A DNA stretch of 64,000 bases, taken from the IMG/VR virus record IMGVR_UViG_3300037248_000024, positions 34,051-98,050 of that record. The stretch is one strand, 5' to 3'. The notes beneath the pieces were generated by a model that did not search any database, was not told the origin of the DNA, and worked only from the letters and a program-made list of their open reading frames with translations. The stretch comes from a virus. Positions 2,113 to 43,944 of this stretch are shown one piece after another. Every line of letters starts with the position of its first letter. Position 1 is the stretch's first letter. The position numbers were made by a program, and so were the translations under genes.

Positions 2113-4212
2113 TCAGAAAGTGACTTTGAGTGTGCGAGAGAACGCCCCCTTGACGCGGGCGATGACGTGGTTTCGTTGCGTTGACGAAAAGCCGAGGCCC
2201 GAGAGTTGGTTCACGGTCTCGTCCGTCCGCATCTTCGCGCCGACCATTTCCAGAACCTTGCGGTGTTGGTCGAGATCGGCGCGGAGAAACTCATTGTAGA
2301 AACCGCGCGCCGTGCCGTCGTTCTGGCAACCATCCAGCATGAAGAAATAGTGCTTGTTTCCGACGCCATGACCGTCCCAATGGTTCGGAGAAAGCATGGC
2401 GACGGTCACGCGGTGGAAGGCTTCGGTGTCGATGGACCAGACCTTGCGCGATACCGTGGTCATCGGGAGTGGACTGATTACGGTCAGGTTTCCGTTCTTG
2501 TAGTGAAGTTCCGCCACCACGACGCGTTCGCCTTGCCGCAACGCCTTGGGATAGGCGAAGCGATGAACTGACCCCTTCCAGTCAATCTCCGCCTCGAAAC
2601 CAACATCGGCGGTTTCTATCTTGGCGTATTGGTGGACGAACAGATTGTAAGTTCCTTCCGCCATACGATGCGCGGAGCCATAGAAGATATTCTCGACTGG
2701 TTCGCGCGTGCCGCGCCCAGGCGAACCACCACCAGCATTCATGTCCACGTCAAGTTGGCCACCGAGGCGAGATGGGCCTTTGTTCGCAAAGTGGATTTCG
2801 TTTCGGTCCGGCTCGACCATGTGAAAATCCAGGTCATCGAAATTCGACCACGCCAACCGGCAACACAGATCGCCCGACACATTGCCTCCGGCCTTCTTCA
2901 CGCGCTCCCGAATGGAATCCGCGAAGTCGCCGTTATAGGACCACGAAAAGCGGTTGTCCCATTTGAACAACGCTGCGGCCGACGCGTCGGCTGGCGCGAT
3001 CAGAGACACCAGATTGCCGACGTGACGATTCTCCACCATGACTTCAATCGATTCCGCCTTCGGAACGACATCCCCCAAAAACTTCTCAATGCCGATCTCT
3101 TCGACTTTATCGAAGGTCTTGGGCTTAACCGATGCCGTCGCGGCGAGGTCATCGAACACGCCGCCGCCTGACATCGCCTTTCTGGCGTTGCGATCCGCGA
3201 ACAGGATGTTGTTCACCGTGATATCGGTCAGGCGCGCGTAGCGGCGTTCCAACGCGGAAGTCAGGCCGAGTTCCGCGACAGTCGCTTTGGCGCGCTCGAT
3301 CATCGCCTTGGTGACAAGCGCGGTGGGACGCTTGTAATTCGCGGGCGCGACCATCGCCTCGAACTTCCGAACGGCACCTTCCATATCTTCGCCAGCGGAA
3401 AAGTCGATCAGCAACTGGCCGATGGATGTGTTTCGGATTTTGGAGACCGAGGCCGGGAGTTCCCCGATTTTCAGCCACACGAAATTGTCGCGATCTTCCG
3501 CCGCCAGCCTGTCGAAGGCGATCTTTTCCTGGCGGAACGTCGTCACGGCATGGCGATGTTCCTCGCCGCGATAGAGTGAGTTCTGGCCGATCAGTTCGAG
3601 AACGGTATCGGCGGCGTCCATCGTCAGTTCGGTGAGTGAACGCAACAGGACATCATGGGCCGCTTTCGAGTCAGACAGGCGTGGACCAATATCCTTTCCC
3701 GCGCATACTCGGCTGTTCGGAAGCGTGACGAAGAAATGCTCCCACGCCTTCACGACACCATCGGTGTCCTCGAAATTCTTGTCGGTCCCGACCTTGGCTT
3801 CGGTGTGCAGGAAACGGTTCTCGATGGCGCGTGCCTTGACCAGATCGCACATCGCCGTTGCTACGGCGTCATAGGTCGGATTGCCCGTGTAGATGTCCCA
3901 GATTGAGGTTAGTTTGCCGTCAATGATGGCGACCATATCCCCAATGGCGCGCACGAACTGACGGCAGCACGAACAGTCGTGCTCGGCGCGCTGGCGCATG
4001 ATCGGGTTGGTGCCGGGCGGGAAACTGGTGAGGTAGGTTGTCCAGAGCGCGTCTTTCTCAACTCCGGTGCGGAACAATTCGTACGTGGACATGAACCCAA
4101 ACTGAGCGGCGACGGCGGTTTTGATTTGGTGGAAGCCGGGATGATCCGGAATGGTATTCGCCAGCGTTTCAGCTTTCGCGGCGACGGCGCGACGGCCAAC
4201 GTGAGAGATCAT
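2113..4212 (-). CDS. 699-aa conserved phage protein with HDCSCC motif and YfaP/DUF2135-like domain
   Basis: Long ORF; EHDCSCCRQF; DLDFH...LDVDMNAGG...PVENIF; start moved to 4212 because the longer ORF overlaps the tRNA. Confidence 0.8.
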   Translation of the reverse strand: MISHVGRRAVAAKAETLANTIPDHPGFHQIKTAVAAQFGFMSTYELFRTGVEKDALWTTYLTSFPPGTNPIMRQRAEHDCSCCRQFVRAIGDMVAIIDGKLTSIWDIYTGNPTYDAVATAMCDLVKARAIENRFLHTEAKVGTDKNFEDTDGVVKAWEHFFVTLPNSRVCAGKDIGPRLSDSKAAHDVLLRSLTELTMDAADTVLELIGQNSLYRGEEHRHAVTTFRQEKIAFDRLAAEDRDNFVWLKIGELPASVSKIRNTSIGQLLIDFSAGEDMEGAVRKFEAMVAPANYKRPTALVTKAMIERAKATVAELGLTSALERRYARLTDITVNNILFADRNARKAMSGGGVFDDLAATASVKPKTFDKVEEIGIEKFLGDVVPKAESIEVMVENRHVGNLVSLIAPADASAAALFKWDNRFSWSYNGDFADSIRERVKKAGGNVSGDLCCRLAWSNFDDLDFHMVEPDRNEIHFANKGPSRLGGQLDVDMNAGGGSPGRGTREPVENIFYGSAHRMAEGTYNLFVHQYAKIETADVGFEAEIDWKGSVHRFAYPKALRQGERVVVAELHYKNGNLTVISPLPMTTVSRKVWSIDTEAFHRVTVAMLSPNHWDGHGVGNKHYFFMLDGCQNDGTARGFYNEFLRADLDQHRKVLEMVGAKMRTDETVNQLSGLGFSSTQRNHVIARVKGAFSRTLKVTF

Positions 4213-4259
4213 GTTCGTATCCAGCCCCTGAGAACCGCCGAGGACGCGCGGAGGCAAAA

Positions 4260-4334
4260 TGGTGCCCAACCAAGGATTTGAACCTCGGACCCACGGTTTA
4301 CAAAACCGTTGCTCTACCCCTGAGCTAGTCGGGC
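4260..4334 (-). tRNA. tRNA-Thr (anticodon UGU)
   Basis: GCCCGAC TAGCTCAGGGGTAGAGC A ACGGT-TTTGTAA-ACCGT ... GTTCAAATC ... GGGCACCA; cloverleaf with encoded CCA. Confidence 0.95.
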
Positions 4335-4337
4335 GTA

Positions 4338-4414
4338 TGGCGCGCCATCCACGGCTCGAACGTGGGACCTCCGCTTCCGAAGAGCGGCGCTCTATCCAAC
4401 TGAGCTAACGGCGC
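4338..4414 (-). tRNA. tRNA-Arg (anticodon UCG)
   Basis: GCGCCGT TAGCTCAGTTGGATAGAGC G CCGCT-CTTCGGA-AGCGG ... GTTCGAGC ... GGCGCGCCA. Confidence 0.93.
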
Positions 4415-4730: not shown

Positions 4731-4916
4731 ATGGGTGAACCCGCTACCCGCGCGATCTATTTCGGCGTCATCGCATGGTTGGCGACCTGGGACGTATCCC
4801 TTGTGATCGGACTGGCGAACGGACCCCTGACGCTCGGGATCGCGCTGGATTTCATCATCGTGACGCTGTGTCTGTTCGCCATTCTGTGGCGGGCACCGAG
4901 GCCGTGGGCGGTTTGA
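4731..4916 (+). CDS. small two-TM membrane protein
   Basis: Hydrophobic 61-aa ORF 3 bp after the previous gene. Confidence 0.6.
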   Translation: MGEPATRAIYFGVIAWLATWDVSLVIGLANGPLTLGIALDFIIVTLCLFAILWRAPRPWAV

Positions 4917-4973
4917 TCTGCGTCGGGTGACGATCGGTTTGGGTTGGGGCGGCGGCGCAGGGGGTTGGTGGGG

Positions 4974-6002
4974 CTACGGACGATAACCAAGAATGTCAGC
5001 CAAATCCGCGCGGGCGCGTGACACGCGGCTTTTCATTGTTCCCACGGGAACACCAACCTTTTCCGCCATGTCCTCATAGGACATTGACGATACACCGATC
5101 ATCAGAAGCGCCTGACGATGTTCAGGACTTAATTTAGCCATGGCGGCTTTCAGGTCCAGAAATTCCATCCGGCTTTCTTGCGCGGGAGCGACTTTAACCG
5201 CCATCGCGTGAACGTCGTCAACGTCCTCGACCTCGCGCCCGCTTTTTCGAAAGTCGCCGTAATATAGGTTACGAAGAATAGTCATCAGCCATGCGATCAT
5301 GTTCGATCCGGCCTGAAATGACTCGGCATTCGCCCAGGCTCTCGCTATCGTATCTTGCACCAGATCGTCAGCACGAGATGAATTCCGGCAGAGCGACATA
5401 GCGAAATTCCGTAGACGCGGCATAAGGGACAACATTTCATTTTGGAATTCCGCCGGAACAGTTGGCGCGATAACAATCTCTTTGGTGGGGTTAGCCAACG
5501 CGAGACGTGCAACGGTGGCCTTATTTAGCGTCCCCCTTTTACGGCCAGCGATTCCAGTCCGGCGCAACACCCCCCGGAAATCGGACGGCCTATATAAATG
5601 AAGGAAAGCGGCGCGCGACTGAACTTTTGATGCTGTTATGTCCGAGCGACTAAACGTCAGATTGATCTTATCCGCGATTAAAGCCGGTAAAATTCCAGCG
5701 ACCCACCCCTCATGTAGGGTCGCATCCATCTCGGCTGTCCATACCTTGCGCCATGTCGAGAGGAATTCCGCCACCCTCGGCATCGTTGCCTTGCGATGCT
5801 GGCAACTTCCTTTGTGTCCCGCCGGTCGTCCACAAGGGCACGGCGGTCGCGCGACTGCCATCATGTATTTGCGGCATGTCGTCCAGTTGATGCCCGTCCT
5901 GACTGATGCCCGATGGTAGGTGACGCCATCCGAGGCTAGGCCACGGAGAATGGCGCGCGCGTCTTCTGCCAGCGGTATTCGTCTGCCTCCTAGCGTGCTC
6001 AT
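4974..6002 (-). CDS. ECF sigma factor (EcfG/sigmaT-like core) with long N-terminal HTH, Zn-knuckle and GcrA-like extension
   Basis: LMPRLRNFAMSLCRNSSRADDLVQDT...AWLMTILRNLYY (region 2) and SYEDMAEKVGVPVGTMKSRVSRAR (region 4). Confidence 0.9.
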   Translation of the reverse strand: MSTLGGRRIPLAEDARAILRGLASDGVTYHRASVRTGINWTTCRKYMMAVARPPCPCGRPAGHKGSCQHRKATMPRVAEFLSTWRKVWTAEMDATLHEGWVAGILPALIADKINLTFSRSDITASKVQSRAAFLHLYRPSDFRGVLRRTGIAGRKRGTLNKATVARLALANPTKEIVIAPTVPAEFQNEMLSLMPRLRNFAMSLCRNSSRADDLVQDTIARAWANAESFQAGSNMIAWLMTILRNLYYGDFRKSGREVEDVDDVHAMAVKVAPAQESRMEFLDLKAAMAKLSPEHRQALLMIGVSSMSYEDMAEKVGVPVGTMKSRVSRARADLADILGYRP

Positions 6003-6007
6003 GGCTC

Positions 6008-6055
6008 ATTATCCCGTCGGACCCGTTGACAGTCAATCCCGTCCTACCGTATAAC
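6008..6055. promoter_or_regulatory. overlapping divergent sigma70 promoters sharing palindrome TTGACAGTCAA
   Basis: Minus strand: TTGACT-17-GATAAT-5-ATG(6002); plus strand: TTGACA-18-TATAAC-6-ATG(6062). Confidence 0.8.
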
Positions 6056-6061
6056 CCCGCC

Positions 6062-6223
6062 ATGGCCAAGCCGAAGGTCCTGGGAGACCGTATCACCGTG
6101 CGACTGCCGACCGGAACGCTCGCGGCGATCAAGGCTTCGTTGAAGCCGGAGGAAACCATGCAGGGCAAGTTGCAGGCCGTGATCGTTCGCCTCGCTACCC
6201 GCGGCCAGGCCACCGCCGCGTGA
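6062..6223 (+). CDS. ribbon-helix-helix (CopG/Arc-like) protein
   Basis: RITVRLPTGTLAAIK is a beta-ribbon plus helix pattern. Confidence 0.65.
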   Translation: MAKPKVLGDRITVRLPTGTLAAIKASLKPEETMQGKLQAVIVRLATRGQATAA

Positions 6224-6973: not shown

Positions 6974-8010
6974 GATGGCATTCGATGCAACCATATTCCC
7001 CGGCAATAAATTTCTGCCGCCCGGTGTTGATGCTATGCAATGGTCCGCTGAGACCGGCACGCTCGCGCTGATGAAAGGCCATTGGGTTCGGTGGCCGTTG
7101 CCGCCCAGGCACGAACCAGAAGTTTTGGATGCCGCCCTCGCCGCCGAACTGGCCGAGCGGGCGCGGATGTGGGGGATGTGATGGCGATTACGCCGGACAA
7201 CCTTCGGGATCAGGGTTACCGAGAATATCCGGTGCCAGCCATAGACAAGTATGACCGACTTTTCCAAAAGCGCATCGACGATCAGGCTGGCGCTATGTAT
7301 TTTGTCAATTTTCGCGAATGGCACCATTCTGATGGCACCAATACTTACGATGCCGATATGTCATGCGAAACGGCGACCCATGGCCATGTCTGGGTCACGA
7401 TCAAAGAGGACACGATTGAAGCTACCGAAAACCGTGCCGGATTGATGTGGGCCGCCGCTGGTAGTGTTTATTATGATCTTTGATCTGGCAGCTCGCACAA
7501 CCGCCGCACCAGATGGAGGGACGCCGTGACTGACTACCCGTTCGAGCCGCCGCGCACAGCCGAAGACCTGGATTCGTTGAACGACGATGAAATCTGGGAA
7601 GGATCACGGGACTATCAACATGGTGATCCCGAGCCGGGGCTCAACCGAGGCCGCGCCTACTGGTACGGCTGGCATGTCGCGGCGATGAACCACGGCGACC
7701 GCGAAACGGATGATGCGATGCGCGATCTGGTGCGAGCGATAACCGTTAGAGAGAATGGTGTGTTGCGGATCGTCACGGCGCAGGAACGCATGAAAGAAAG
7801 GCATCTGCCATGATCGGTGAGAAAGAAGCCGCTGGCATGACGTATCTGACCTATAAGCGGGTCTTTTGGGCGCGAATGTTGGCGGCATGGGAGCGCTACA
7901 GGTCTGACCATCCGGAGCGCGCCGCATTCGTTCGCGAACGGACCGCCATCGCCAAGGAACAGATTGCGATCTGGGCCAATCCTGAACTCGACCGGAGGTA
8001 CAGGACATGA
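6974..8010 (+). CDS. four small hypothetical genes (about 6974-7181, 7181-7483, 7526-7813, 7810-8010)
   Basis: Abutting or overlapping ORFs with RBS-like purine tracts. Confidence 0.6.
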
Positions 8011-25034: not shown

Positions 25035-25190
25035 GGTCTGGGCGAGGGCGCAGATTGACATGCTCTGCTCCTTTCGGATTCAGATTTCCGAAGCTCGACA
25101 TCAAGCCGTCCTCCGGATGCTTCCTGCTTCGTCCGGTCCTTTAGGAGGATGTCCGTCCACAGGCTTCAACGCGCTGTCCGCGCGCCGTAG
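25035..25190 (-). ncRNA. putative TnpB omega/reRNA; guide starts TCTGCGCCCTCGCCCAGACC
   Basis: Right-end-derived RNA inferred from known TnpB biology; boundaries approximate. Confidence 0.6.
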
Positions 25191-26341
25191 TATGATGATC
25201 GCCGCGTTGGTGTCGGCATTGGCTTCGTATCCGCATCCTGTGCAGACAAACCGTACCTGATCCTGTCGGCTTCGTGCATCCACCACGCCACATTCAGCGC
25301 ACGTCTGGCTTGTGTATGCGGCTGGAACTTCGATGAGCCTGCCACCACGATCCGCCAGCTTGTAGGCCAGCATGGTCCGGAAACCGCCCCATCCCTGATC
25401 CAGAATGGCACGGTTCAGCGCTGCCTTTTGCCGGACCATCCTGCCCGGTTCGGCTGCGGTGCCTTTCGCAGATGCGGTCATGTTCCGCACCTTCAATGCC
25501 TCCAAAACGACAGCGCCGTGGTTCTTGGCGATGTCAGTTGAAACCTTATGGAGGAAGTTCTTACGGGCGTTCGCCACCCGCATCTGTATCTTCGCCACGC
25601 GGCGGATGGCCTTGCGGCGATTGGACGAACCGCGCTTCTTGCGGCTCAGGTCGCGTTGCGCCTTCCGGAGCGCCCGGAGCGCCTTTTTGCCGCAGTTCAC
25701 CGGGGCGATGTTGACGCCGTTGGACAACGCGGCGAATACAGCGACGCCGCGATCAATTCCGACCGCTGGCAGAGTGGATGGCGCTGGATCAACTATCTTG
25801 TGCTGCCATTGAACGGAGACGCGCCATTGTCCCGCGTGGCGTGAGACAGTCGCGTTGCGAATGTCTCCAACAACGCGGCGCCAACCTCGAAATGAAATCC
25901 ACCCTAGTTTTGGCAGTTTAATACGTCCAGAAGAGTTGCCGGTGCGTTCAATCCTAAAGGCCTCCGGGTGCGGAAACCGAAAGCTATCATTCAACCCCTT
26001 CTTACGCGGCGTTGGGTACCCGGAACGACTCTTCCACCAGTTCTGATAGGCTTTGTTGAGGTCCATCATCACCTGATGCAACGCATCCGCCGGTACATCC
26101 CTAATCCAATCAACTTGCCTTCGAAGCATGGTGACTTCACGGCACTGACTGGCAAAATTGATCCCCCGTCCGGCGCGGCCAAAAGTCCGCCGCTGTTCCA
26201 AGGCGAGGTTGTAGACGAACCGGCACGCACCCGCGAATCGCGCCATTTTCTGCGATTGCTCGGATGTCGGGTAGAGCCGATAGGTGTTGGCCTTGCGAAT
26301 AATCATAGGCGCACCATGCCAGACTCCAATCCGCGATGCAA
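25055..26341 (-). mobile_element. IS200/IS605-family solo tnpB element (IS1341-like), no tnpA
   Basis: tnpB followed by GCCTGTGGA...GAAGCAGGAA, a terminal hairpin TCC-GAAA-GGA, and the end GCATGTCAA; left end not identified. Confidence 0.8.
25101..26306 (-). CDS. tnpB: RNA-guided endonuclease TnpB
   Basis: YRLYPT HTH; RuvC D (GIDRG), E (VLEAL), D (NADTNAA); Zn finger CAECG/CTGCG. Confidence 0.95.
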   Translation of the reverse strand: MIIRKANTYRLYPTSEQSQKMARFAGACRFVYNLALEQRRTFGRAGRGINFASQCREVTMLRRQVDWIRDVPADALHQVMMDLNKAYQNWWKSRSGYPTPRKKGLNDSFRFPHPEAFRIERTGNSSGRIKLPKLGWISFRGWRRVVGDIRNATVSRHAGQWRVSVQWQHKIVDPAPSTLPAVGIDRGVAVFAALSNGVNIAPVNCGKKALRALRKAQRDLSRKKRGSSNRRKAIRRVAKIQMRVANARKNFLHKVSTDIAKNHGAVVLEALKVRNMTASAKGTAAEPGRMVRQKAALNRAILDQGWGGFRTMLAYKLADRGGRLIEVPAAYTSQTCAECGVVDARSRQDQVRFVCTGCGYEANADTNAAIIILRRADSALKPVDGHPPKGPDEAGSIRRTA

Positions 26342-26403
26342 TAGCAAAATCGCACAATCCGCGAAATTATTGCCTTGACCCTCCCAGGAACCTCGTATAG
26401 GAT
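26313..26403. promoter_or_regulatory. divergent promoters with 10-bp direct repeat CAATCCGCGA (26327, 26355)
   Basis: Minus strand: TTGCAT-17-CATGGT-6-ATG(tnpB); plus strand: TTGACC-17-TAGGAT-7-ATG(26411). Confidence 0.7.
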
Positions 26404-27700: not shown

Positions 27701-27915
27701 TGCCCACCGGCACCGTCAAATGGTACAGTTCCGAGAAGGGTTACGGCTTCATTTCCCCGGACAACAACACCGGCGGACGGGACCATTTTGTTCATCGCAC
27801 CGCCCTGGCCCGCGCCAACATCGCCACGCTCCATGAAGGCCAGCGCGTCGAATACGAACTGGAACGCGACGACAGGACGGGGAAGGTGGCGGCGGTGGGG
27901 TTGAGGGTGGTGTGA
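27700..27915 (+). CDS. cspA: cold-shock protein
   Basis: MPTGTVKWYSSEKGYGFI...DHFVH (RNP1/RNP2). Confidence 0.93.
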   Translation: MPTGTVKWYSSEKGYGFISPDNNTGGRDHFVHRTALARANIATLHEGQRVEYELERDDRTGKVAAVGLRVV

Positions 27916-28133
27916 TGGGCGCTTCCGAATATCTTCGCGGCAATACCAATCGTTACCGGCCGAATCATAAGCCGGAGACTATTGGTTATGCCCGGCATCT
28001 TTGGGATCATGATTGGTCGGCGTCGGAAATAGCGGCGCAGATCGAACTCAGCCGGAACGCGATTTGCGCCATCGCGAGACGGAATGATTTCGCGGAGCGC
28101 GGGTCTCCGATAAAGAGACGAACCAATGGGTAA
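27912..28133 (+). CDS. GcrA-like N-terminal HTH protein
   Basis: ARHLWDHDWSASEIAAQIELSRNAICAIARR resembles GcrA LW..G.SASQIA..L..TRNAVIG. Confidence 0.65.
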   Translation: MMGASEYLRGNTNRYRPNHKPETIGYARHLWDHDWSASEIAAQIELSRNAICAIARRNDFAERGSPIKRRTNG

Positions 28134-31907: not shown

Positions 31908-32483
31908 GTGACGGGCACCAAAAAAGACAGCGGCTACGACCGCGATCCCGACGACTGGTATGTTGAAAATGAAGCCTGCGTTCGCTCGTTATTCGACGCC
32001 ATGCCGTGGTTCCGCGCGAATGGCGCCCATGATCCTTGCTGTGGTGGCGGCAACATTCCGCACGTCGCCGCGAAAATGGGTATAGCGGTCAGCGGTGCCG
32101 ATAAGGTTGATCGCTGCAACGGCGGCTTCCCTGTCCGGGAGTTCCTGTCCGACAACACGCGGCGCAAAGCAATCGTAACCAATCCACCATTCGGTATCGC
32201 CATCGAGATCGTCAAACACGCGTTGGATGTTGTTGATGACGGCGGCTATGTCGCGATCATCGGTCAGGCGAAGTTTCTGTTCTCTCAGGCACGGCATCCA
32301 TTGTTCATGCGGCGTGAGATGGATCGTGTACTGGTGTTGTCGAAGCGGCCTTCCATGCCGCCAGGGAAATTGCTGGCGGAGAAGGGAGAGGAGGTGCGTG
32401 GAAATGGCTTCCACGACTTTTGCTGGTTCGTTTGGCGGGTTGGTAAAACATCGCCGGGCGCTGCGATTTCGTGGCTCCCATGA
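31908..32483 (+). CDS. DNA adenine methyltransferase (small phage type)
   Basis: DPCCGGG followed by IVTNPPF. Confidence 0.85.
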   Translation: MTGTKKDSGYDRDPDDWYVENEACVRSLFDAMPWFRANGAHDPCCGGGNIPHVAAKMGIAVSGADKVDRCNGGFPVREFLSDNTRRKAIVTNPPFGIAIEIVKHALDVVDDGGYVAIIGQAKFLFSQARHPLFMRREMDRVLVLSKRPSMPPGKLLAEKGEEVRGNGFHDFCWFVWRVGKTSPGAAISWLP

Positions 32484-32496
32484 CGGGACGCGGCGG

Positions 32497-33288
32497 ATGA
32501 GCGTGCGGGTCGAACGGATCGGGGATGCGACGCTGTATCTGGGGGATGCTGCCGAGGTTATTCCCATCTTGCCGATGATCGAACTCGTCATCACCGATCC
32601 CCCATTCAGTAGCGGCGCTCGCACCGACAGCGAGCGGCAGGTGCGCGGTGCCATGCTGCGATCCATGGAAGATGCCGATTGGTTCAGCCACGACGCGATG
32701 ACCACCTGGGGATTTACGTGGTTCCTGCGTTCGGCGTTTTCAGCGCTGCGTCAGCGTATGATTCCAGGCGCGCACGCCTATGTGTTCATTGACTGGCGAC
32801 AAACGCCAACCGTGTATGGGCTGATGGAAGCGACGGGCTTTCGGGTGAACCATTGTCTTGTCTGGGCTAAGCCGCATTTTGGCATGGGTTCCTATTGGCG
32901 CAATCAGCACGAAAACATCGTGTTCGCCAGCAACGGAATGCCGAACGACATGCTTGATCGAGGTATGGGTAGCGTACTGCGTCACCCAGCGGTTTCGCCT
33001 GATGCTCGCGTTCACCCAACCGAAAAGCCCGTTGGATTGCTTGAAGCAATCATCACCGCCGTTCCTGGTGCGGTCGTTTTTGATCCGTTCATGGGAAGCG
33101 GCAGTGCGGCCGCGGCTGCGTTACTCTGTGGCCGATCATTCATCGGGTGCGAGATCAATCCACATCATTTCGATGTCGCTTGTCAACGCGCTGAAGCAGC
33201 TCGGCGTGCCGGGCCACGTATGCAATGGATGGCGCAGCCACCCGAAGACCAACGCATCGCTGATCTTTTCGCGGAACCGGAAACCTAG
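32497..33288 (+). CDS. beta-class N4C/N6A DNA methyltransferase
   Basis: ITDPPF ... HPTEKP ... DPFMGSG. Confidence 0.92.
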   Translation: MSVRVERIGDATLYLGDAAEVIPILPMIELVITDPPFSSGARTDSERQVRGAMLRSMEDADWFSHDAMTTWGFTWFLRSAFSALRQRMIPGAHAYVFIDWRQTPTVYGLMEATGFRVNHCLVWAKPHFGMGSYWRNQHENIVFASNGMPNDMLDRGMGSVLRHPAVSPDARVHPTEKPVGLLEAIITAVPGAVVFDPFMGSGSAAAAALLCGRSFIGCEINPHHFDVACQRAEAARRAGPRMQWMAQPPEDQRIADLFAEPET

Positions 33289-33970: not shown

Positions 33971-34771
33971 GTGAGTGACGACAGCGGTTCACTATCTATA
34001 ATTACCAGGGTGAGCGCTATTTCTCATGGATTATCAAGATTCTTTACCGGAAAACCATGCAAACGGCATCATGTTGCTGAACGATTTGTCATAGGCGGTG
34101 ACTGTGTATTATGCAGACCTATCCGAGCTGCCGAATGGGAAGAACAAAACCCAGGTGCGCGACGTGCAAACCTAAAAAACTGGCAAAAAGCGTTCCCCGA
34201 ACGTCAACTGCAAGCTACTCTGAGATGGCGTGAAGCCAACAGAGACAAAGTCTTGGCCACAAGCGCCGCATACAAGGTAGCAAATGCTGAAAGTATTGCG
34301 GCTAAAAAATATACCCGTTGCCGGACGAATGAATACCGCATCATGAACCGAGACGCACAAAGAGTCAGGCGCGCGAACACAGAAAAAAGAGAAAATGATA
34401 AGTTGGTCTTACGCAACTGGCGAAGCAGACCTGAGGTGGCGGAGCATCTAAGAAAAGCCGCCTCCGTATGGCAGAAAAATAACCCCGATAAAGTAAGGAC
34501 CATCAATCGCAATAGTAAAGCCCGGCGCAAAAAGGCGGAAGGACGCCATACAGCACAAGATATTGCGAACATTTATCAGTTGCAGAGGGGTAAATGCGCG
34601 ATATGTAAAAGTGCATTAAATGGAAAATACCACGTCGATCATATTGTGGCGCTAAAAAACGGAGGCTCGAATTGGCCTCGCAATCTTCAATGCCTTTGTC
34701 CACCGTGCAATCTGAGAAAGTCTGACAAACATCCTGTAGTTTTTGCTCAAGAAAGAGGATTGCTCCTGTGA
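33971..34771 (+). CDS. HNH endonuclease
   Basis: CAIC...HVDHIVALKNGGSNWPRNLQCLCPPCNLRK; lower GC than flanks. Confidence 0.93.
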   Translation: MSDDSGSLSIITRVSAISHGLSRFFTGKPCKRHHVAERFVIGGDCVLCRPIRAAEWEEQNPGARRANLKNWQKAFPERQLQATLRWREANRDKVLATSAAYKVANAESIAAKKYTRCRTNEYRIMNRDAQRVRRANTEKRENDKLVLRNWRSRPEVAEHLRKAASVWQKNNPDKVRTINRNSKARRKKAEGRHTAQDIANIYQLQRGKCAICKSALNGKYHVDHIVALKNGGSNWPRNLQCLCPPCNLRKSDKHPVVFAQERGLLL

Positions 34772-35481
34772 GTTTCTGGTTCCTCGCAACACCATATTCC
34801 CGTTTTCCCGACGGCATTGAGGCGGCTTTCAATTTAGCGGTCGAAGCGCGCGGCCTTTTGCTCAAGGCCGGAGTCCCGGTGTTCAGTCCCATTATTCATT
34901 CTCATCCGGTCGCGGTTCGATGCGGCATTGATCCTCTCGATCATTCAATTTGGCTTCCAAGCGAGGCGCCGATTCTTCGAAGTGCGATTGGATTGATAAT
35001 GCTGCGTGCGGAATCCTGGGGAATCAGTTACGGGATGAACCATGAGAAAAAGACATTTGAAGCGGCTGGAAAACCCGTAATCTGGATGGATGTAGGAGTC
35101 GTACCGGAGTATTTCACGGCTAAGAGGATAGCCGCACCGTTAGACCCCCAATCCCCTCTCATCGAATTTCTGGACAAATGCGCCGCTCTTGGTAATGCGC
35201 CACGAGAAGATCGCATCCGATCCGCCGTGAATGATTTGCGGGAGTTATATCCGCTTCTCACGGCATGGTTAGGTTATGGGAAGACGGAGGGGGTTCTCCA
35301 TCCATGTGATGATGGGATTCCATGGGGTCATCATCCCGGCGGTGGGGAGTGGGTCCCTATCAACAAGACGCCACTTCTCGCCGCTGGACTGGGACCGGCA
35401 CCTTTTTATGCCATGATCGGCGGGGTGTTTACGTATGTCGTGCATGAAGCGCCAGCGACTCCCTCTATTTCTGATGCCTGA
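34768..35481 (+). CDS. DUF1937-like protein with C-terminal extension
   Basis: FLATPYS...VFSPIIHSHP...SYGMNHE. Confidence 0.8.
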   Translation: MSFWFLATPYSRFPDGIEAAFNLAVEARGLLLKAGVPVFSPIIHSHPVAVRCGIDPLDHSIWLPSEAPILRSAIGLIMLRAESWGISYGMNHEKKTFEAAGKPVIWMDVGVVPEYFTAKRIAAPLDPQSPLIEFLDKCAALGNAPREDRIRSAVNDLRELYPLLTAWLGYGKTEGVLHPCDDGIPWGHHPGGGEWVPINKTPLLAAGLGPAPFYAMIGGVFTYVVHEAPATPSISDA

Positions 35482-36052
35482 TTTGGACGCCACTAAACCG
35501 TGGATACAAAACAGTCCTGAGCAGCGCCTGTCTGTAGCAACCTATCGTTTATTGAAACGAACGCTTCTCTCACCAAAATACATAACCGCGATCCATGACA
35601 GCGACGGCGGAGGCCGTAGCGATCTCCAAAGAATCAGGGATGCGAACAGAGGTATCACAACGGGTCAGTTGGATTTTGATGTGGTGCAAGGGGTAACGGT
35701 GGAATTGAGAGATGGCACCTCCGTTGTTCGCGCCCTCTGCCGGAAGCTGGAACTGAAACGCGGTAAAAACACATTATCCCCACGCCAGAAAATAACTGTA
35801 AGTGTGCTAACGGCATGTGGTGCTCCTCCAATCATCGCATGGACATTGGCCGAAGTGCATGATGGATTGAAAGCCGCCGGATTCAGATTTGGGAATAATG
35901 TGGGATACGTGCTGCCACATTTAGAAGAGGAACTGGGAGAATGGGATCGAAAAGCAGAGGCTATTTTAAGTGGGGAAATCATTCAGAAAAGACAGTATGC
36001 TGGCGGTCGGCCCAAGGAACGAACAAAACCTGGGCTGACGTGGAAATTGTGA
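35474..36052 (+). CDS. VRR-NUC-like PD-(D/E)XK nuclease
   Basis: GITTGQLD...LELKRGKNTLSPRQ. Confidence 0.7.
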   Translation: MPDLDATKPWIQNSPEQRLSVATYRLLKRTLLSPKYITAIHDSDGGGRSDLQRIRDANRGITTGQLDFDVVQGVTVELRDGTSVVRALCRKLELKRGKNTLSPRQKITVSVLTACGAPPIIAWTLAEVHDGLKAAGFRFGNNVGYVLPHLEEELGEWDRKAEAILSGEIIQKRQYAGGRPKERTKPGLTWKL

Positions 36053-36062
36053 TGGGCGGGGG

Positions 36063-36090
36063 TTGACATGGTGCGAGAGTGGTGTATATC
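36063..36090 (+). promoter_or_regulatory. sigma70-like promoter (leaderless)
   Basis: TTGACA-16-TATATC-6-ATG(36097). Confidence 0.6.
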
Positions 36091-36096
36091 TGCCTC

Positions 36097-36255
36097 ATGG
36101 TTGGTCAAGTGAGTAGTACCGCACGAGAGAGTGAACGTCAGTCTGTGACGTTCACCAGTCCACAAATGGCCTTTCTGAAAAAGGAAGCCAAGAAATTGGG
36201 CGTTTCCGTGGGGGAGCTTATTCGACGCATCGTGGATCAGTTCAGAGGGGCATGA
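36097..36255 (+). CDS. CopG-like ribbon-helix-helix protein (52 aa)
   Basis: ERQSVTFTSPQMAFLKKEAKKLGVSVGELIRRIVD; read by eye, not in the ORF track. Confidence 0.8.
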   Translation: MVGQVSSTARESERQSVTFTSPQMAFLKKEAKKLGVSVGELIRRIVDQFRGA

Positions 36256-36256
36256 A

Positions 36257-37225
36257 GTGGCCTACCGCCGAGAAGGAGGTATATACTGCATTCGACATAC
36301 GGACGGTCGTTCTTATGTTGGGTCGGCAGTTTCCTTTACCCGTAGATGGTACTCTCATCGCCGTGAACTTAATCGCGGCACTCATCATTCTAAAAAACTA
36401 CAACACGCCTGGACAAAATATGGTTCTGAAGCGTTTTCATTCATTATTTTAGAGGCGGTGGAAGATCGTGCTAACCTTCTGGTCCGTGAACAATTTTGGA
36501 TTGACCATCTGAAATCTGCCAGCCGCAGCGGCCTGAATATGTGTCCAAATTCTCGTAGCCAACTTGGTATGCGACATTCGGAAGACGCCAAGCGACGGAT
36601 AGGGGAAAAAGGTCTCGGTCGAAAAATGAGCGCGGAAAGCAGGCGAAAATTAAGTGATAGCAAAAAAGGTATAAGACCAAGCGCCGCGACAATTGAAAAA
36701 ATGAGAATCCGAATGTTAGGTCACATTCGGTCTCCTGAATCCCGCGCAAAGGGGGCGGCCTCTAACCGGGGCCGCATCACGCCGCCAGAGGTGCGCGCTA
36801 AACAGAGCGCGGCCAAGATCGGGAAGAAAGCAACTCCAGAGCATCGTGAAAATGTCAGACGTGCCCGATTGGGTGTCGGTCTTTCCGAGGCGGCAAAAAA
36901 GAAACTTAGCTTGGCTAACAAAGGCCGAGTTCATACAGCGGAAGCGCGTGCGAAAATTAGCGCCGGAAAGATCGGAAAGCCACGTAGCGCAGAAGCCAGG
37001 GCTAAACAAAGTGCCTCGCGAATGGGTATAAAATTGAGTATAGAAACACGTTCTAAGATGAGTGTCGCTCAGACTGGTCGTAAACATACGCCAGAGACGC
37101 GTGCAAAAATTGGCGCCGCTCATAAAGGTCGTAAACACAGCCCCGAGATGATCGCAAAATATATCGTCACTCGCGTTCGAAACAATCGTATCCGAGCGAT
37201 GCAACAGGAGAACATCCATGCCTGA
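36257..37225 (+). CDS. GIY-YIG homing endonuclease with NUMOD3 repeats
   Basis: GIYCI...SYVGS...RW..H...REQFWI followed by about 12 tandem 17-aa repeats. Confidence 0.93.
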   Translation: MAYRREGGIYCIRHTDGRSYVGSAVSFTRRWYSHRRELNRGTHHSKKLQHAWTKYGSEAFSFIILEAVEDRANLLVREQFWIDHLKSASRSGLNMCPNSRSQLGMRHSEDAKRRIGEKGLGRKMSAESRRKLSDSKKGIRPSAATIEKMRIRMLGHIRSPESRAKGAASNRGRITPPEVRAKQSAAKIGKKATPEHRENVRRARLGVGLSEAAKKKLSLANKGRVHTAEARAKISAGKIGKPRSAEARAKQSASRMGIKLSIETRSKMSVAQTGRKHTPETRAKIGAAHKGRKHSPEMIAKYIVTRVRNNRIRAMQQENIHA

Positions 37226-38177
37226 CGGAACAACGAATGCGCCCCGCGCACGCCGCAGCAAACTTCTCGCGGTCCCCCCTGAATCGATCCAACCAAAGCG
37301 TCCGAAGTTTCTGATTTATGGACCGCCAGGAGTGGGGAAAAGCTGGGTCGCCGCAGACTATCCATCGTGCTACTACATAGATACGGAGGGCGGCGCTGAT
37401 ATGGATCAGTACCAAGCAAAGTTACGCGCATCTGGCGGCGTCTACCTTGGACCAGGTGAAGGATCACTTGATTTTGATGTGGTTATTGACCAAATGAAAG
37501 CCTTGGCCGAAGAAAATCATCCATACCGCACCGTCGTGATTGATTCCATTTCCAAATTGTGGAATGTGGCTCTCACAGATGAACAAGAGGCTCTCGGCGA
37601 CAAGGATGCTTTTGGGGCTTATAAAAAGCTGCCGACTCGTAAATTTGCCTCTTTGCTGAAATGGGTAAATCGCCTCGACCTCAATGTTATTTTCATCGCG
37701 CATCAGAAAGAAATCTGGGGCCTGAACGACAAAAAGCAACGCGAGGTCATTGGGTATGGTGCGGACGCGCAAGATAAATTGGAATACGATCTCCATCTCG
37801 TGTTGCGCATTGCCAAGATAGGACCATCGCGTTACGCCTATATTGGTAAGTCTCGGCTTCCCAGTTTCCCAGAGGGCGAACGGTTCAACTGGTCGTACGC
37901 AGACTTCGCCGATCGTTATGGAAAAGATGTCATTGAAAAAGAAGCGGTTCCGCTCGATCTGGCGACACCGGAGCAACTCACAGAACTTAACCGCTTATTG
38001 AGCTTCGTTAAGATGCCCGACGATTGGGAGGCTAAAGTGTTCAAAGTCGCTGGTATCGAAGCATGGGAAGAAATCGACGCCACGAAAATCGCTGCCATCA
38101 TCGACATGCTGAAAAAGCGAATCAATGGAGGTGGTGGAAACGAAGAAGACGGTGCGGCGACCGCCAAAGCGACGTGA
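37218..38177 (+). CDS. AAA_24 / Sak4-like ATPase recombinase
   Basis: IYGPPGVGKS, IDTEGG, VVIDSIS, IFIAH. Confidence 0.88.
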   Translation: MPDGTTNAPRARRSKLLAVPPESIQPKRPKFLIYGPPGVGKSWVAADYPSCYYIDTEGGADMDQYQAKLRASGGVYLGPGEGSLDFDVVIDQMKALAEENHPYRTVVIDSISKLWNVALTDEQEALGDKDAFGAYKKLPTRKFASLLKWVNRLDLNVIFIAHQKEIWGLNDKKQREVIGYGADAQDKLEYDLHLVLRIAKIGPSRYAYIGKSRLPSFPEGERFNWSYADFADRYGKDVIEKEAVPLDLATPEQLTELNRLLSFVKMPDDWEAKVFKVAGIEAWEEIDATKIAAIIDMLKKRINGGGGNEEDGAATAKAT

Positions 38178-38403
38178 AATTCATCCCACTACCATCGTCA
38201 TCTCCGCGCTCGTTACGCCGGGACAGGATTGACGGCGACCCTCCCGTTACGTTGGAACTGGTCTATGACCCCAGAGACGGCAAGAAATATCTATCTCTTG
38301 GGGTTGGAGATAGGGCGGTACGGCGATCGTGGCTGTCCGTAAATGCAGTAACCGGACTATCCAAAAGTGTGTTGTCAATGTTGAAAGAAATGGAGAAAAC
38401 CAC

Positions 38404-38937
38404 ATGAGACTCGAAAAAACCATCACCAAGGAAGAAGCCGACGCTGGCGGCGGATTTAAGCCGTGGCCCGACGGGACATACGACTTTGAAATCAAGGAGG
38501 CCGCCGATGATGTCAGTAAGGCTGGAAATTCCCAGATCAAGCTGACATTGTGGGTCTATGACGATGAAGGTCATCGGCGCATGATTTTCGACTATCTCGG
38601 AGCCAGTGAGGCCGGGCAATTCAAGGTTCGTCATTTCTGCGAATCCATCGGAATGATTCGGCAGTATGAAGAAGGAAATCTGGAACCCGACGAGATGGAA
38701 GGGAAGACCGGACGCGTACGGCTGGGATATAAAAAAGCCCAGGGGGACTACCCAGAAGGCAATCAGGTGCGCGACTATGTTTCAGGTGGAGACGAAGCGC
38801 CGCGCGCCGCTCGCCCGGCGTCAGCATCGCGCGCAGCCGCTCCAGCCACTTCGCGTCCGGCATCGGCGCCGCGTGCTTCGCAAAGCACCGGGGCCATGAT
38901 CGACGATGACATTCCCTTTGCTCCTGAGTGGCGATGA
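38404..38937 (+). CDS. DUF669-like single-stranded DNA-binding protein
   Basis: PDGTYDFEI...SKAGN...; acidic tail DDDIPF. Confidence 0.85.
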   Translation: MRLEKTITKEEADAGGGFKPWPDGTYDFEIKEAADDVSKAGNSQIKLTLWVYDDEGHRRMIFDYLGASEAGQFKVRHFCESIGMIRQYEEGNLEPDEMEGKTGRVRLGYKKAQGDYPEGNQVRDYVSGGDEAPRAARPASASRAAAPATSRPASAPRASQSTGAMIDDDIPFAPEWR

Positions 38938-39639
38938 GTCTCCACACCCAACCCAACGTGGTCGAACTGAAACATGGTCGCGGATCAAATCGATCCGTGA
39001 TCCTGGTTCAGAAAGAACCGCCTCGGAAATGGCTGGCTCGTGTGAGGTGGTCGTCAGCAAAGAAGCTATGGTTGGTTACCAAAGGGGAGCCTCTCGCGTT
39101 GGGTAAGGTCGTCGCCTCCGCGCATGGTTTTGAAAGTGCGCGAGAGTTGGCGCATAAGATGGCGCTGTTGTGATGCCCGCACCCTCTCCAAAACCAATCT
39201 TTACCCCACCGCAAACTCCACCTTCTCACACCGGCTCTCTATGGCTCAACCCAGACAAAACCATCGGAGGCATCATTTCCGATGTGTTCAATGAGCCGAT
39301 TCATTTCGTCGGAACCAAGGTTCCTGGAGAGGCGGAATATCGTGTGAGGGGTTGGCGTGGGGTAGGTCCGGAGTTTCGCCGTCTTCCCATTGAGGGGGCG
39401 CCGCGAGAAGATGGGTTGCCTGATGGCGCGCCATCCGCTCCCTGTAAAATTTGCGAAGGAAGATTATTTTGGCGAGCGTCCATAATTTCTGGGGGCGGCT
39501 CCGGACCATGGCGCTGTGCCACATGCGAACCCGCCGATTCCTCGCTTTGGCTCGACGGTTTGGCTGTTCCGCCATCGTCTAAAGCCACCACTTTGCAGCC
39601 CTCATCCAAACCAACGCCACCTAAAGAAGGCAGCCTCCT

Positions 39640-40944
39640 TTGATCTCTCTTTCAGAAATCGAGCTAAACGCCGCACAACAAAAGGCAGAAAAAGAAATCG
39701 GCGCATCCATCGAAATGTCACGGCAGCATTTACTTACAGGTGATGCTGGAACGGGAAAGACGGTCCTCGTTCAAAAGATCGCCGTGAAGCAACAGGAACG
39801 TCGCAAAAAAATAGTCCTTACCGCGCCAACTCATAAAGCCGTCGCCGTCCTCGAACGCAAACTAAAAGCGGCTGGAATTGATATCCGGTGCCAAACCATC
39901 CATTCATTGCTTTCGCTTTGCCCCAAGGCGCAAGGTGATAAGCAGATATTCGTTCGTGCACCAAAAGCCAAACCGGTGCTGGAAGACATTATCGTTATAG
40001 ACGAATGCTCCATGCTCGACGCCTCCATGATGCAGCACATTGAACGGCATCTGTCTGGCCGAGCAGTTATTCTGTGTGGCGACGTTGGGCAGTTACCTCC
40101 AGTTGGTGAAAGGGAGTCGCGTTCGTTTTCTGTGATGCCGCGTAGCCACCTCCAAGAGGTCGTTCGACAGGCACAGGGGAATCCAATCATCGCCGCGTCC
40201 CAGATCATCAGGAAAAATCAAACCGATGGCAGCGGTGTCGTCGATTGGTCGTGGTGTAGGGAAGCAAGGGGAGAAGCAAATACACCCCTGGAAAATACCG
40301 GAGTCTTTACACCCCACAGAAGTGATGTAGACGCCTGGATCAGAAAGGGATTTACCTCAGAAGCGTTTCGTGCCGATCCTGATAATTTTCGCTATCTGGC
40401 CTGGACCAATGCGCGTGTGGCTGAAATCAACGCGAAGATCAGACGATGGATATATCCAGGAGAAGACCTGTCCACCCCGTTCATATCAGGGGAAACGGCA
40501 CTGCTTCGCTCACCATTGGTAATCGATAACCAAATCCTGATCGCGACCAATGAAGAAGTGAAGGTGCTTTCCATCCAAACCGGGGAGCAACTTGGTATCG
40601 CGACCTGGGAAATGAAGGTTGTGACAGAAAGTGGGATGGACCACAATATTCACTTGCCACGTGATTGGGATGGATATCGGATCGCTCTGGCTGAACTGGC
40701 GGATGCTGCCAAAGCTGATTCTTATTTGTGGGAGAACTATCACGATTTCAAAGCTGCTTTTATCAACGCGCAGCAATGTATGGCGCTGACCGTTCATTCG
40801 AGCCAGGGAAGCACCTTCACCTGGACCTACCTCGATATTCCCGATATCAGAAAACGGATTAAGGACAATCTACTTGAGGCCCAGCAGCTATTGCTGACGG
40901 GGGCAACTCGGCCAAGCGATGGGCTGGTGTTGGTGGGGGTTTGA
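39640..40944 (+). CDS. SF1B (Dda/RecD-like) helicase
   Basis: GDAGTGKT, APTHKA, IDECSM, GDVGQLPPV, VRQ, TVHSSQGST. Confidence 0.93.
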   Translation: MISLSEIELNAAQQKAEKEIGASIEMSRQHLLTGDAGTGKTVLVQKIAVKQQERRKKIVLTAPTHKAVAVLERKLKAAGIDIRCQTIHSLLSLCPKAQGDKQIFVRAPKAKPVLEDIIVIDECSMLDASMMQHIERHLSGRAVILCGDVGQLPPVGERESRSFSVMPRSHLQEVVRQAQGNPIIAASQIIRKNQTDGSGVVDWSWCREARGEANTPLENTGVFTPHRSDVDAWIRKGFTSEAFRADPDNFRYLAWTNARVAEINAKIRRWIYPGEDLSTPFISGETALLRSPLVIDNQILIATNEEVKVLSIQTGEQLGIATWEMKVVTESGMDHNIHLPRDWDGYRIALAELADAAKADSYLWENYHDFKAAFINAQQCMALTVHSSQGSTFTWTYLDIPDIRKRIKDNLLEAQQLLLTGATRPSDGLVLVGV

Positions 40945-40969
40945 CGCGGCCTTACCAACTTGGTATATG
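40941..40969 (+). promoter_or_regulatory. sigma70-like promoter
   Basis: TTGACG-17-TATATG. Confidence 0.6.
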
Positions 40970-40998
40970 TTGGTCATCAAGGGGAGAGGCGGCGACCC

Positions 40999-41169
40999 AT
41001 GGATGACGATAAGCGGCTTGAACAGGTCCATCTGCGCTTCCGCAAGGCGGTTCTGGACGCCGCCAAAGCTGATGCTGCCCGTAAGGGCCAACCGCTCACC
41101 ACCTGGTTCGAACGCCTTGTAGAGGCTTCAATGCCTCAGGAAACGCAAGATGCGGAGAGCGCACGATGA
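40999..41169 (+). CDS. ribbon-helix-helix protein
   Basis: QVHLRFRKAVLDAAKADAARKGQPLTTWFERLV. Confidence 0.7.
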   Translation: MDDDKRLEQVHLRFRKAVLDAAKADAARKGQPLTTWFERLVEASMPQETQDAESAR

Positions 41170-41933
41170 AAATCTCTGGACCAACTGACCCATCCGGCTC
41201 TCCTTTGCTACCTGAACCATCCGCCATCATCATCCCCTTTGGCAAACATAAGGGAAAGACTGTCGCGGAACTGCTGGCGACCGATCAGCCCTATGCGGAC
41301 TGGATCACGGCGCAGGGATGGGTGGCCGAGAGGTTCGCGGAACTCCACGCCGCTATTGTTACACGGAGCGCGGGGGCAGATGATACGCCGGAGCACAATG
41401 CGCTCCAGGCGCGATTTTTGGATGAAGGGTTTCGACGTGGATTTCTTTTGTTGTGCGCTAAGGATTTGAGAGAGAGAATTACTGAAGCGAAGCGTTTGCT
41501 TATGGACAGCGCAAATTATGTAATAAATCTGTTTGATCACCCGAAATATGGATGGGAGACTATTTCTCAGGCGCGCTACGATAATGCGAAGTCCATCCTG
41601 GAGAAAATCACATCAGGGGCTGTCCGTATAAAAAGCACTGTTCAATTTGAGGTTTCTGGAATTGATGTTTTTATTACATATGGAGGCGCATTGAGCAGTG
41701 AAATTGTTTCTCCAAAACGGATTTCCGTTGAGTTAAAACCGGCCCTCGGTGACGACTACCCATCTGTTATGCGTCAGATGCAGCGATTGCATTGCAGTCT
41801 CATAGTGGTCGGTCAATATACCGGGCGCGGCGTGTCTGAGCCTCAATTACGTCAGATGTTCGAGGCGAATGATTGTCAGTTGGTATTTGTCCAGGAAATC
41901 GAGGAGCGCATTCGCAACACGGCGACTCCGTAA
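41166..41933 (+). CDS. DUF3820-like N-domain fused to a possible PD-(D/E)XK domain
   Basis: IPFGKHKGKTVAEL...YADW; IDVF...VELKP. Confidence 0.6.
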   Translation: MKISGPTDPSGSPLLPEPSAIIIPFGKHKGKTVAELLATDQPYADWITAQGWVAERFAELHAAIVTRSAGADDTPEHNALQARFLDEGFRRGFLLLCAKDLRERITEAKRLLMDSANYVINLFDHPKYGWETISQARYDNAKSILEKITSGAVRIKSTVQFEVSGIDVFITYGGALSSEIVSPKRISVELKPALGDDYPSVMRQMQRLHCSLIVVGQYTGRGVSEPQLRQMFEANDCQLVFVQEIEERIRNTATP

Positions 41934-42190
41934 TTTTATGTCCTTGCAGCCCTCCGTTTTCGCGGATGCGTTCCGGCGCCATGCCGTGCCAAAGATACGG
42001 CAGGTTATGATGGTGCGTGCTCATTTCGTGGGAATCGGTCTCTATGATTTTTCAGATGCCTACGCCGATGTGATGATTTATGCGGGCCAGCTTGGCGCAT
42101 TTTATCTTCCTGATGAGCATCTGGATGCACTCTATGATTGGGTAGCCGGATTGCTGACTGATATGGCCGCCGCTGTTGGTGAGGCGGCTG

Positions 42191-43600: not shown

Positions 43601-43650
43601 TATTTCATCTAAAAAATAAACCAAATAATTTCAATATGTTAGTTTTTTTC

Positions 43651-43917
43651 TGTTCCTACTGTTCCTACCTGGAGTTAAATGGTAGGAACAAAAAGTTGTA
43701 GTGCCTACCTTGATGTTCCTACTGTACCCACTGTTCCTACCATTTTGTATATATACAAAGAAAGATGGAACGGTATGTAGAAAAAACACAGCCCTCTAAG
43801 GAAGTGGTAGGCACAGTAGGAACAGTAGGCACAATGTTGATTTCATTAGATGTTGTGGTAGGAACATTTAGTGCTGATGTTCCTACCTGGGTGGGAACAT
43901 GCTATCCTTTATCCGCA
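43651..43917. repeat. iteron array / probable replication origin
   Basis: About 13 copies of TGTTCCTAC or its variants in both orientations; palindrome TTTGTATATATACAAA at 43744-43759; AT-rich; directly after VirE. Confidence 0.85.
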
Positions 43918-43944
43918 CCGCTTGCCTTCTGAGTGTCAGGATTG

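Follow-up and report, generated by a model that had tools for sequence, protein, structure and literature searches.

Sigma factors are thought to read promoters through their regions 2 and 4 only, and extra specificity normally comes from separate activators. A gene of a soil phage raises the question if a sigma factor can also bring along a DNA reader of its own. The gene lies on the minus strand of the stretch of 64,000 nucleotides analysed here (the window), which comprises bases 34051-98050 of the 98,050-bp IMG/VR virus record IMGVR_UViG_3300037248_000024; the record, rated complete, has a terminal repeat of 127 bp. The open reading frame (ORF) joins a predicted N-terminal DNA-binding module to the core of an extracytoplasmic function (ECF) sigma factor. 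We favour, at about an even chance, a working sigma factor with a covalently tethered GcrA-style DNA reader.

Architecture of the protein

In the C-terminal half (residues 185-340), NCBIfam models of ECF sigma factors span residues 184-339 (TIGR02937, 71 bits versus a cut-off of 42.9). As in other ECF (group 4) factors, regions 2 and 4 are present, both with Pfam scores above cut-off, and regions 3 and 1.1 are absent, which agrees with the complete ECF sigma factor that an earlier reading of the sequence alone (below, the sequence-only reading) had seen in the C-terminal ~160 amino acids (aa). The top match of the core in the PDB was, by far, chain A of 5UXX (E 7.9e-43), the RpoE protein of Bartonella quintana crystallised with the anti-sigma factor NepR. 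In five alphaproteobacterial genomes the best matches of the core (118-161 bits) each have a nepR gene (PF18557) at a distance of 0.05-1.5 kb, and the next ECF sigma factors of these genomes reach 30-44 bits only. Because of the nepR-adjoining best matches and the match to 5UXX, the core is, as far as sequence can tell, EcfG/ECF15-like, in line with the resemblance to EcfG/sigmaT claimed before. It is 50-57% identical to cellular members of this family of alphaproteobacterial general stress sigma factors (EcfG, SigT, RpoE2), and the recognition helix of region 4 is conserved.

A scan of one genome per prokaryote species for cellular relatives, which also supplied the five genomes above, gave 80 loci at 41-51% identity, mostly from Acetobacteraceae, the three best being from Beijerinckiaceae. 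In 28 of these loci a strict NepR motif is present on the same strand. At least two tandem EcfG-like genes were seen in 71 of these loci (L002-L081, mostly Acetobacteraceae), and in four mapped genomes of the Acetobacteraceae group nepR lies downstream of the EcfG-like pair, not upstream. One EcfG-like database protein of 297 aa (P0003) has an internal duplication of region 2, probably an assembly or annotation artefact.

No homologue exceeds 57% identity to the phage core, and in a tree of 207 rows the phage sigma factor sits on a branch of 0.53, within no supported clade. For these two reasons the core is, by the sequences compared, not a recent copy of some sampled host gene, and the "captured host sigma" of the sequence-only reading is not borne out as a recent capture. 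We infer a working sigma factor rather than a decoy. With 90% or more as the limit, 80 positions are conserved in the 31 nearest homologues, and the phage core keeps 62 of them, including the recognition helix of region 4 and the motifs of region 2; true sigma models score 52-56 bits on the core versus 39.7 and 14.3 bits for PhyR sigma-like models.

A phmmer search with residues 1-180 against 1.84 billion representative proteins gave 53 matches, and AlphaFold2 (AF2), supplied with the family alignment, modelled the same residues with a mean predicted local distance difference test (pLDDT) of 87.7. By these alignments the N-terminus (residues ~10-170) is a real, conserved protein module. The helix-turn-helix (HTH), knuckle, GcrA-like unit and basic hook that had been picked out by eye are all present and conserved in the 53-representative family, and the predicted structure is a confident fold with a GcrA-type DNA-binding domain (DBD) and a recombinase-type HTH. 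The module would be expected to bind DNA as well as zinc.

Residues 6-51 resemble the HTHs of Hin, Tc3 and resolvase with VIA Z of 5.7-6.0 (2r0q_C, 6.0; 1tc3_C, 5.7), and the Pfam families HTH_23, HTH_7 and HTH_38 match module homologues. Alignments of 23 and 31 members show no variation at C55, C57, H63 and C67 of the knuckle, and G58, G65, W88 and R138 are nearly invariant. The motif H-x3-C-x2-C of zinc-binding anti-sigma (ZAS) domains is absent from the module, which has C-x-C-x5-H-x3-C instead, and no membrane segment was found. For residues 81-136 the GcrA DBD was the best match among 48,161 chains: 5yiu_A reached VIA Z 7.1 with 49/49 residues aligned, where a Z of 7 by itself is middling for a small helical domain, and Foldseek placed 5yiv_A at TM 0.89 with a root mean square deviation of 1.0 Å. 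Pfam GcrA (PF07750) gave no direct match on the sigma protein itself; in five members of the family its positions 2-56 match the corresponding segment with 25-31.5 bits (cut-off 26.9), and through these matches the GcrA-type fold assignment is backed by sequence. The basic hook keeps the pattern GRxxGxxN across the family; at its position most relatives have the AT-hook-like GRPxGSKN (GRP in 8 of 13 aligned relatives), which we take to resemble the AT-hook of HMGA. A comparison with the ESM Atlas gave scores of at most 0.79, to be read as leads only.

An in-frame TGA lies two codons 5' of ATG 6002. Since the next possible start codon (ATG, GTG or TTG) after residue 1 is that of M47, M1 is the sole start that takes in the conserved HTH. 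In public annotation this ORF appears as P0002 (266 aa), which begins with a GTG at residue 77. According to the alignments it is too short, because P0004, a metagenomic protein of 420 aa, is 63% identical to the sigma protein over residues 18-167, and ~50 remoter proteins align from residue ~10. The objection that the N-terminus might be untranslated or absent in homologues, raised in advance by the sequence-only reading, is thereby answered: the module appears to be translated, is modular and is kept throughout the 53-representative family.

In Logan contigs from two runs of soil metagenomes, with depths of 14.3 and 11.6, positions 4900-6100 recur with 0 differences and 0 gaps; the IMG/VR record may itself derive from either run. 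A third run contains 5185-5431 in identical form, and no RNA data set is listed as containing the stretch. Because of the indel-free identity in two assemblies, a frameshift artefact at the junction is unlikely. The features of the ORF and of the adjacent promoters are collected in Table 1.

Table 1. Features of the fused sigma gene and its promoter region, in window coordinates
Feature	Residues	Position	Strand	Basis or remark
Whole ORF, 342 aa + stop		4974..6002	(-)	N-terminal DNA-binding module (predicted) fused to ECF sigma
Three-helix HTH, Hin/Tc3/resolvase type	12-47	5862..5969	(-)	AF2 helices 13-24, 29-36, 40-47
C-x-C-x5-H-x3-C knuckle, putative zinc site	55-67	5802..5840	(-)	Conserved in alignments A1, A3
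GcrA-type DBD with 7-residue insertion before recognition helix	86-139	5586..5747	(-)	Fold match; Pfam GcrA in homologues
Basic hook GRKRGTLNK	153-161	5520..5546	(-)	G153, R154, G157 invariant in alignment A6
Linker: one short helix, then low-confidence stretch	162-184	5451..5519	(-)	pLDDT 43-60 at 171-181
Sigma region 2	193-256	5235..5426	(-)	PF04542 52.3 bits; PF22029 PhyR_sigma2 39.7 bits
Sigma region 4, recognition helix GTMKSRVSRAR as in EcfG	283-334	5001..5156	(-)	PF08281 56.3 bits; alignment to 5UXX
Sigma70-type promoter TTGACT-17-GATAAT		6008..6036	(-)	-10 ends 5 nt before ATG 6002
Divergent promoter TTGACA-18-TATAAC		6026..6064	(+)	6 nt, then ATG 6062 of 53-aa ORF

Relatives of the module and comparison with known systems

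Members of the module family range from 82 to 734 aa; the module is usually N-terminal and the remainder varies. About 50 proteins have the knuckle-bearing module but no sigma domain, and no other family member matches the EcfG core. One member (P0161) has sigma regions 2 and 4 followed by an HTH-knuckle at the C-terminus; it is the only other member with sigma domains, and the order is reversed. In another (P0130), the C-terminal segment resembles the GcrA linker and the Cys-rich sigma70-interacting domain (spacing C-x15-C-x10-C-x2-C), a match obtained with a home-made hidden Markov model from 3 GcrA sequences at E 3.7e-6 among 53 sequences. On account of P0130 and P0161, the module can be said to recur with parts that dock to RNA polymerase (RNAP) or sigma. 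Repeated GcrA-like units are found in P0134, P0140 and P0153, behind a T5orf172 (MUG113) domain in the former two. Many of the proteins P0122-P0159 share a C-terminal tail (~PTARADPxTKGVPY...GPDPxRExRLxQxxEGSRGR) to which no family could be assigned; it could be a further docking motif.

Searches for the module found none in INPHARED phages, in IMG/VR (protein and alignment queries) or in JGI metagenome contigs. The 401 Acetobacteraceae genomes searched held partial HTH or GcrA-like matches only, and word-index searches returned the query itself, P0004 and P0156 only. With a DNA pattern for the knuckle we detected one IMG/VR contig (L100), which encodes an HTH-knuckle-only protein of 114 aa at 7412-7756 (+). 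This gene sits just upstream of a large portal-like gene.

Sigma factors of phages are not new in themselves. The core is matched, over the core only, by 51 cultured-phage records at 28-36% identity, and ECF sigma factors were found on 25 IMG/VR contigs (152-241 aa, 27-51% identity), 0 of the 25 with a long DNA-binding module. Some of the phage factors, which include rpoE of Sinorhizobium phage phiM9 and those of Rhizobium phages RL38J1 and RHph beside the IMG/VR contigs, are EcfG-like, with at most 51% identity; a long module is found in none of them. Thus EcfG-like sigma factors borne by phages are already known, as their sequences indicate, whereas this fusion is unique in the databases searched. 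The statement of the sequence-only reading that no phage sigma factor of this architecture had been described has held among the 53 module matches, INPHARED and the 25 IMG/VR ECF sigma factors.

Cellular EcfG factors differ from the phage protein in several respects. The 184-residue N-terminal module was seen in no cellular homologue; the phage gene stands without nepR or phyR and hence outside a partner-switch locus; and its promoter is of the sigma70 type, not the autoregulated one. With PhyR the phage protein has in common that an EcfG-derived domain is fused to a second domain, but the domain order is reversed, a receiver is missing and the sigma motifs are kept rather than degenerate.

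A parallel in overall layout is found in the extended ECF sigma factors (ECF41, ECF42, BldN/ECF121, SigC/ECF36s4 and the SigR' isoform), which, as here, combine a sigma2-sigma4 core with an extra domain and have no adjacent anti-sigma gene. The N-terminal extensions described for ECF factors are few, for the most part short, and regulatory (PMC7826278). Neither "DNA-binding domain" nor "helix-turn-helix" occurs in the text of a review of non-canonical ECFs from 2022 (PMC8999054), and a DNA-binding ECF extension is mentioned in none of the ECF reviews PMC7826278, PMC8999054 and PMC8103513. The extension of the phage protein differs in being a 180-residue module of DNA-binding folds.

Promoters and phage context

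The sigma gene and a 53-aa ORF without a Pfam match diverge from a pair of back-to-back promoters (Table 1), the -35 hexamers of which share 1 nt within the palindrome TTGACAGTCAA. Sigma70-type sites matching at least 10 of 12 positions number four in the genome versus 4.1 by chance, so what is notable is the position directly before the start codon. Since the -10 element ends so close to ATG 6002, the sigma gene is probably early, host sigma70-dependent and transcribed into a leaderless mRNA; the mRNA of the 53-aa ORF is probably leaderless as well. Beyond the divergent promoter the plus strand continues with small HTH genes, and as a whole the back-to-back region looks like a genetic switch.

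The complete phage record contains no NepR (PF18557), no receiver (PF00072) and no second sigma factor. The gene of the large terminase subunit lies at 56168 and the portal gene at 58626, with the late genes running rightwards across the junction of the record; a tyrosine integrase was looked for in the phage and none was found. Downstream of the sigma gene and on the same strand lie tRNA-Thr(TGT) and tRNA-Arg(TCG) at 4260-4414 (-), then a 718-aa protein of PHROG 1735 (2113-4269) with neither an assigned function nor a Pfam match.

A second candidate with GcrA likeness is a 73-aa ORF at 27912-28130 (+), which has a weak match to the Pfam GcrA DBD (E 3.4e-4, below cut-off) and no sequence likeness to the GcrA-like unit of the sigma protein. 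Its neighbours encode a cold-shock-domain protein, a KorB-domain protein and a beta-clamp fragment. Searched by sequence against the PDB, the GcrA-like unit of the sigma protein, this 73-aa ORF and P0130 each gave no match. GANTC is strongly depleted in the phage genome (474 sites versus 837 +/- 40 expected from second-order Markov simulations); an N6_N4 methyltransferase is encoded at 32227-33285, and the ORF at 49045-50508 also matches methyltransferase PHROGs. Further to the right of the sigma gene, a TnpB-like gene (OrfB_IS605, Cas12f1-like TNB, HTH_OrfB_IS605) occupies 25104-26357 (-). A low-GC island (0.50-0.54 versus about 0.59 elsewhere) extends from 34000 to 44000 and includes genes for a GIY-YIG homing-endonuclease-like protein (36257-37222), a Dda-like helicase and a primase/helicase.

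A proposed tethered DNA reader and its alternatives

For the favoured reading, a working sigma factor with a GcrA-style reader attached to it, we envisage the following course. The gene would be transcribed early by the host sigma70 holoenzyme as a leaderless mRNA, in a phage that has no anti-sigma factor of its own. The C-terminal EcfG-type half would bind the host core RNAP and read ECF-type -35 and -10 elements, and the N-terminal 180 residues, flexibly tethered, would add a DNA contact for the holoenzyme near the promoter. The GcrA-type reader would be joined to sigma region 2 via ~48 residues that include the basic hook. Such a protein would be the covalent counterpart of the GcrA-sigma70 unit, in which GcrA acts in trans.

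GcrA, the sigma70 cofactor of Caulobacter (PF07750; 5YIU, 5YIV), binds domain 2 of sigma70 before promoter binding and is a monomeric reader with a linker of ~60 residues, through which boxes that lie in the spacer or between +5 and +30 come within its reach (PMC5887438, PMC9976885). The N-terminal extension of an ECF sigma factor emerges on the same front side (PMC8103513). The fold of the DBD is common to GcrA and residues 81-136 of the phage protein; the logic of a monomeric reader on a long linker to the sigma2 side is known for GcrA (PMC5887438, PMC9976885) and is proposed here from the architecture. Differences are equally evident. The sigma-interacting domain of GcrA, which has a CCCH zinc finger, is absent, with the ECF core at residues 185-342 in its place; an HTH and the knuckle are added upstream of the DBD, which itself has a 7-residue insertion; and residues of the methyl pocket are not conserved. 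Because an ECF sigma factor lacks the non-conserved region where the sigma-interacting domain of GcrA docks, docking may have been replaced by fusion.

A more specific version of this idea, which we put forward only tentatively and consider rather less probable than a tethered reader as such, is that sigma factor and activator have become one polypeptide. The GcrA-type reader, the HTH and a minor-groove hook would be held on the sigma2 side, and the protein would recognise a composite promoter made up of core elements and a box in the spacer or downstream.

The consensus of ECF15 promoters is GGAAC-N16/17-CGTT, and the search for target sites is the first of several points that weigh against a tethered reader serving a working sigma factor. 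The strict consensus occurs at 3 sites in the phage genome versus 3.4 expected, none of which heads an operon. With one mismatch allowed, 8 non-coding sites were found versus 5.9 expected, and neither 5-mer/4-mer dyad enrichment nor a search for repeated 11-13-mers gave anything above chance. The same is true of a scan with a relaxed EcfG consensus. One site, at genome position 133, was considered as the head of the late operon and rejected, because an ORF spanning the circular junction contains it. The proposal of the sequence-only reading that RNAP is redirected to phage promoters is thus not supported by these scans. It has to be added that the strict consensus was recovered in only 3 of the 80 cellular ecfG loci, so that the phage scan had no working positive control; because of this failure, the missing phage sites are weak evidence both ways. 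They would also be explained if a composite promoter need not match the EcfG consensus.

The other opposing points concern the protein. In the recognition helix of the GcrA-like unit, ITASKVQSR stands in place of ITRNAVIGK of canonical GcrA, taken for this alignment from four of the alphaproteobacterial genomes. The methyl-pocket residues R33, N34, I37 and G38 of GcrA (PMC5887438) correspond to A, S, Q and S, although the alignment is weak (E 0.32) and its register approximate. Because these residues are replaced, reading of methylated GANTC cannot be assumed. In the hook, the GRP core of the AT-hook is lost (GRKRG). The phage core departs from the consensus at 18 of the 80 positions named above, a number that only few homologues reach. 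The full-length AF2 model has no defined arrangement of the two halves (predicted template modelling score 0.35), with a poor alignment for the core. Finally, the fusion is known from one sequence only, which gives no basis for judging if the fused state is under selection.

Two alternatives, both of which we regard as unlikely, deserve to be weighed against a working sigma factor with a tethered reader. According to the first, the sigma half would be held by NepR or would act as a decoy which soaks up host NepR, as PhyR does, frees the host EcfG and turns on the stress regulon, the DNA-binding half having a separate role. The closest solved relative of the core was crystallised bound to NepR, a Pfam PhyR_sigma2 model matches the core, and the lack of EcfG-type phage promoters would also fit. 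Furthermore, a predicted complex with a NepR from a Beijerinckia metagenome-assembled genome scored 0.51 versus 0.00 for the best control. Of 80 solved complexes 58 attained this mark, as did 2 of 110 mismatched pairs, yet this pass is a weak one: among scores of at most 0.60 there are only 7 of the 80 solved complexes together with both passing mismatches. The contacts agree between runs to at least 81% and the pLDDT of the partner is at least 68; a like complex has been solved, so the pass may reflect that known structure, and the NepR may not be that of the host. The escape from or titration of NepR suggested by the sequence-only reading thus gains a weak pass in silico that may owe to the solved complex. 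Against a decoy it can be said that the DNA- and core-binding motifs are kept here, whereas those of PhyR are described as degenerate (PMC8103513), and that a decoy has no need for a 180-residue DNA-binding module.

To the second alternative we assign a similarly low probability. Here, the N-terminal half would be a regulatory extension serving autoinhibition, sensing or proteolytic maturation without joint DNA targeting, or the protein would be bifunctional, with the module as a repressor and the core as a sigma factor. Known N- and C-terminal extensions of ECF factors are indeed regulatory (PMC7826278, PMC8999054, PMC8103513), no anti-sigma gene lies beside the sigma gene, and the latter is located in a switch-like divergent promoter region near small HTH genes. 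A purely regulatory role is harder to reconcile with the occurrence of the module in about 50 sigma-free proteins and with its being composed of DNA-binding folds. Neither a ZAS motif nor a membrane segment is present, and AF2 did not dock the module on the core, though with the poor core alignment noted above.

Still less probable is that the gene gives two products, with an internal start such as M190 yielding a plain sigma factor and the long form being a minor or specialised isoform. M190 is exactly where the first conserved helix of cellular EcfG proteins begins, and SigR and SigH are known to exist in isoforms with different start codons (PMC7826278), but there is no convincing Shine-Dalgarno sequence before M190 and the layout of the promoter speaks for leaderless translation from M1. 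An accidental or non-functional fusion, or an assembly artefact uniting two genes, is very improbable: the single known instance and the slightly different GC content at third codon positions of the halves (0.60 versus 0.55, in itself uninformative) are outweighed by the indel-free identity in two assemblies at 11-14x depth, by two intact, conserved halves and by a junction with neither a stop nor a start preceded by a ribosome-binding site.

The present evidence for a sigma factor with a tethered GcrA-style reader is architectural and comes from one metagenomic genome. If the reading is true, the protein would have the first ECF extension to consist of a DNA-binding module, and would be a compact natural test case for the pre-recruitment idea shown by GcrA; if the composite promoter is real as well, the protein would represent an evolutionary shortcut from docking to fusion. 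It could also serve as a part for orthogonal promoter design. For the phage, such a protein would show how the niche of the alphaproteobacterial stress sigma factor might be occupied without the NepR/PhyR circuit.

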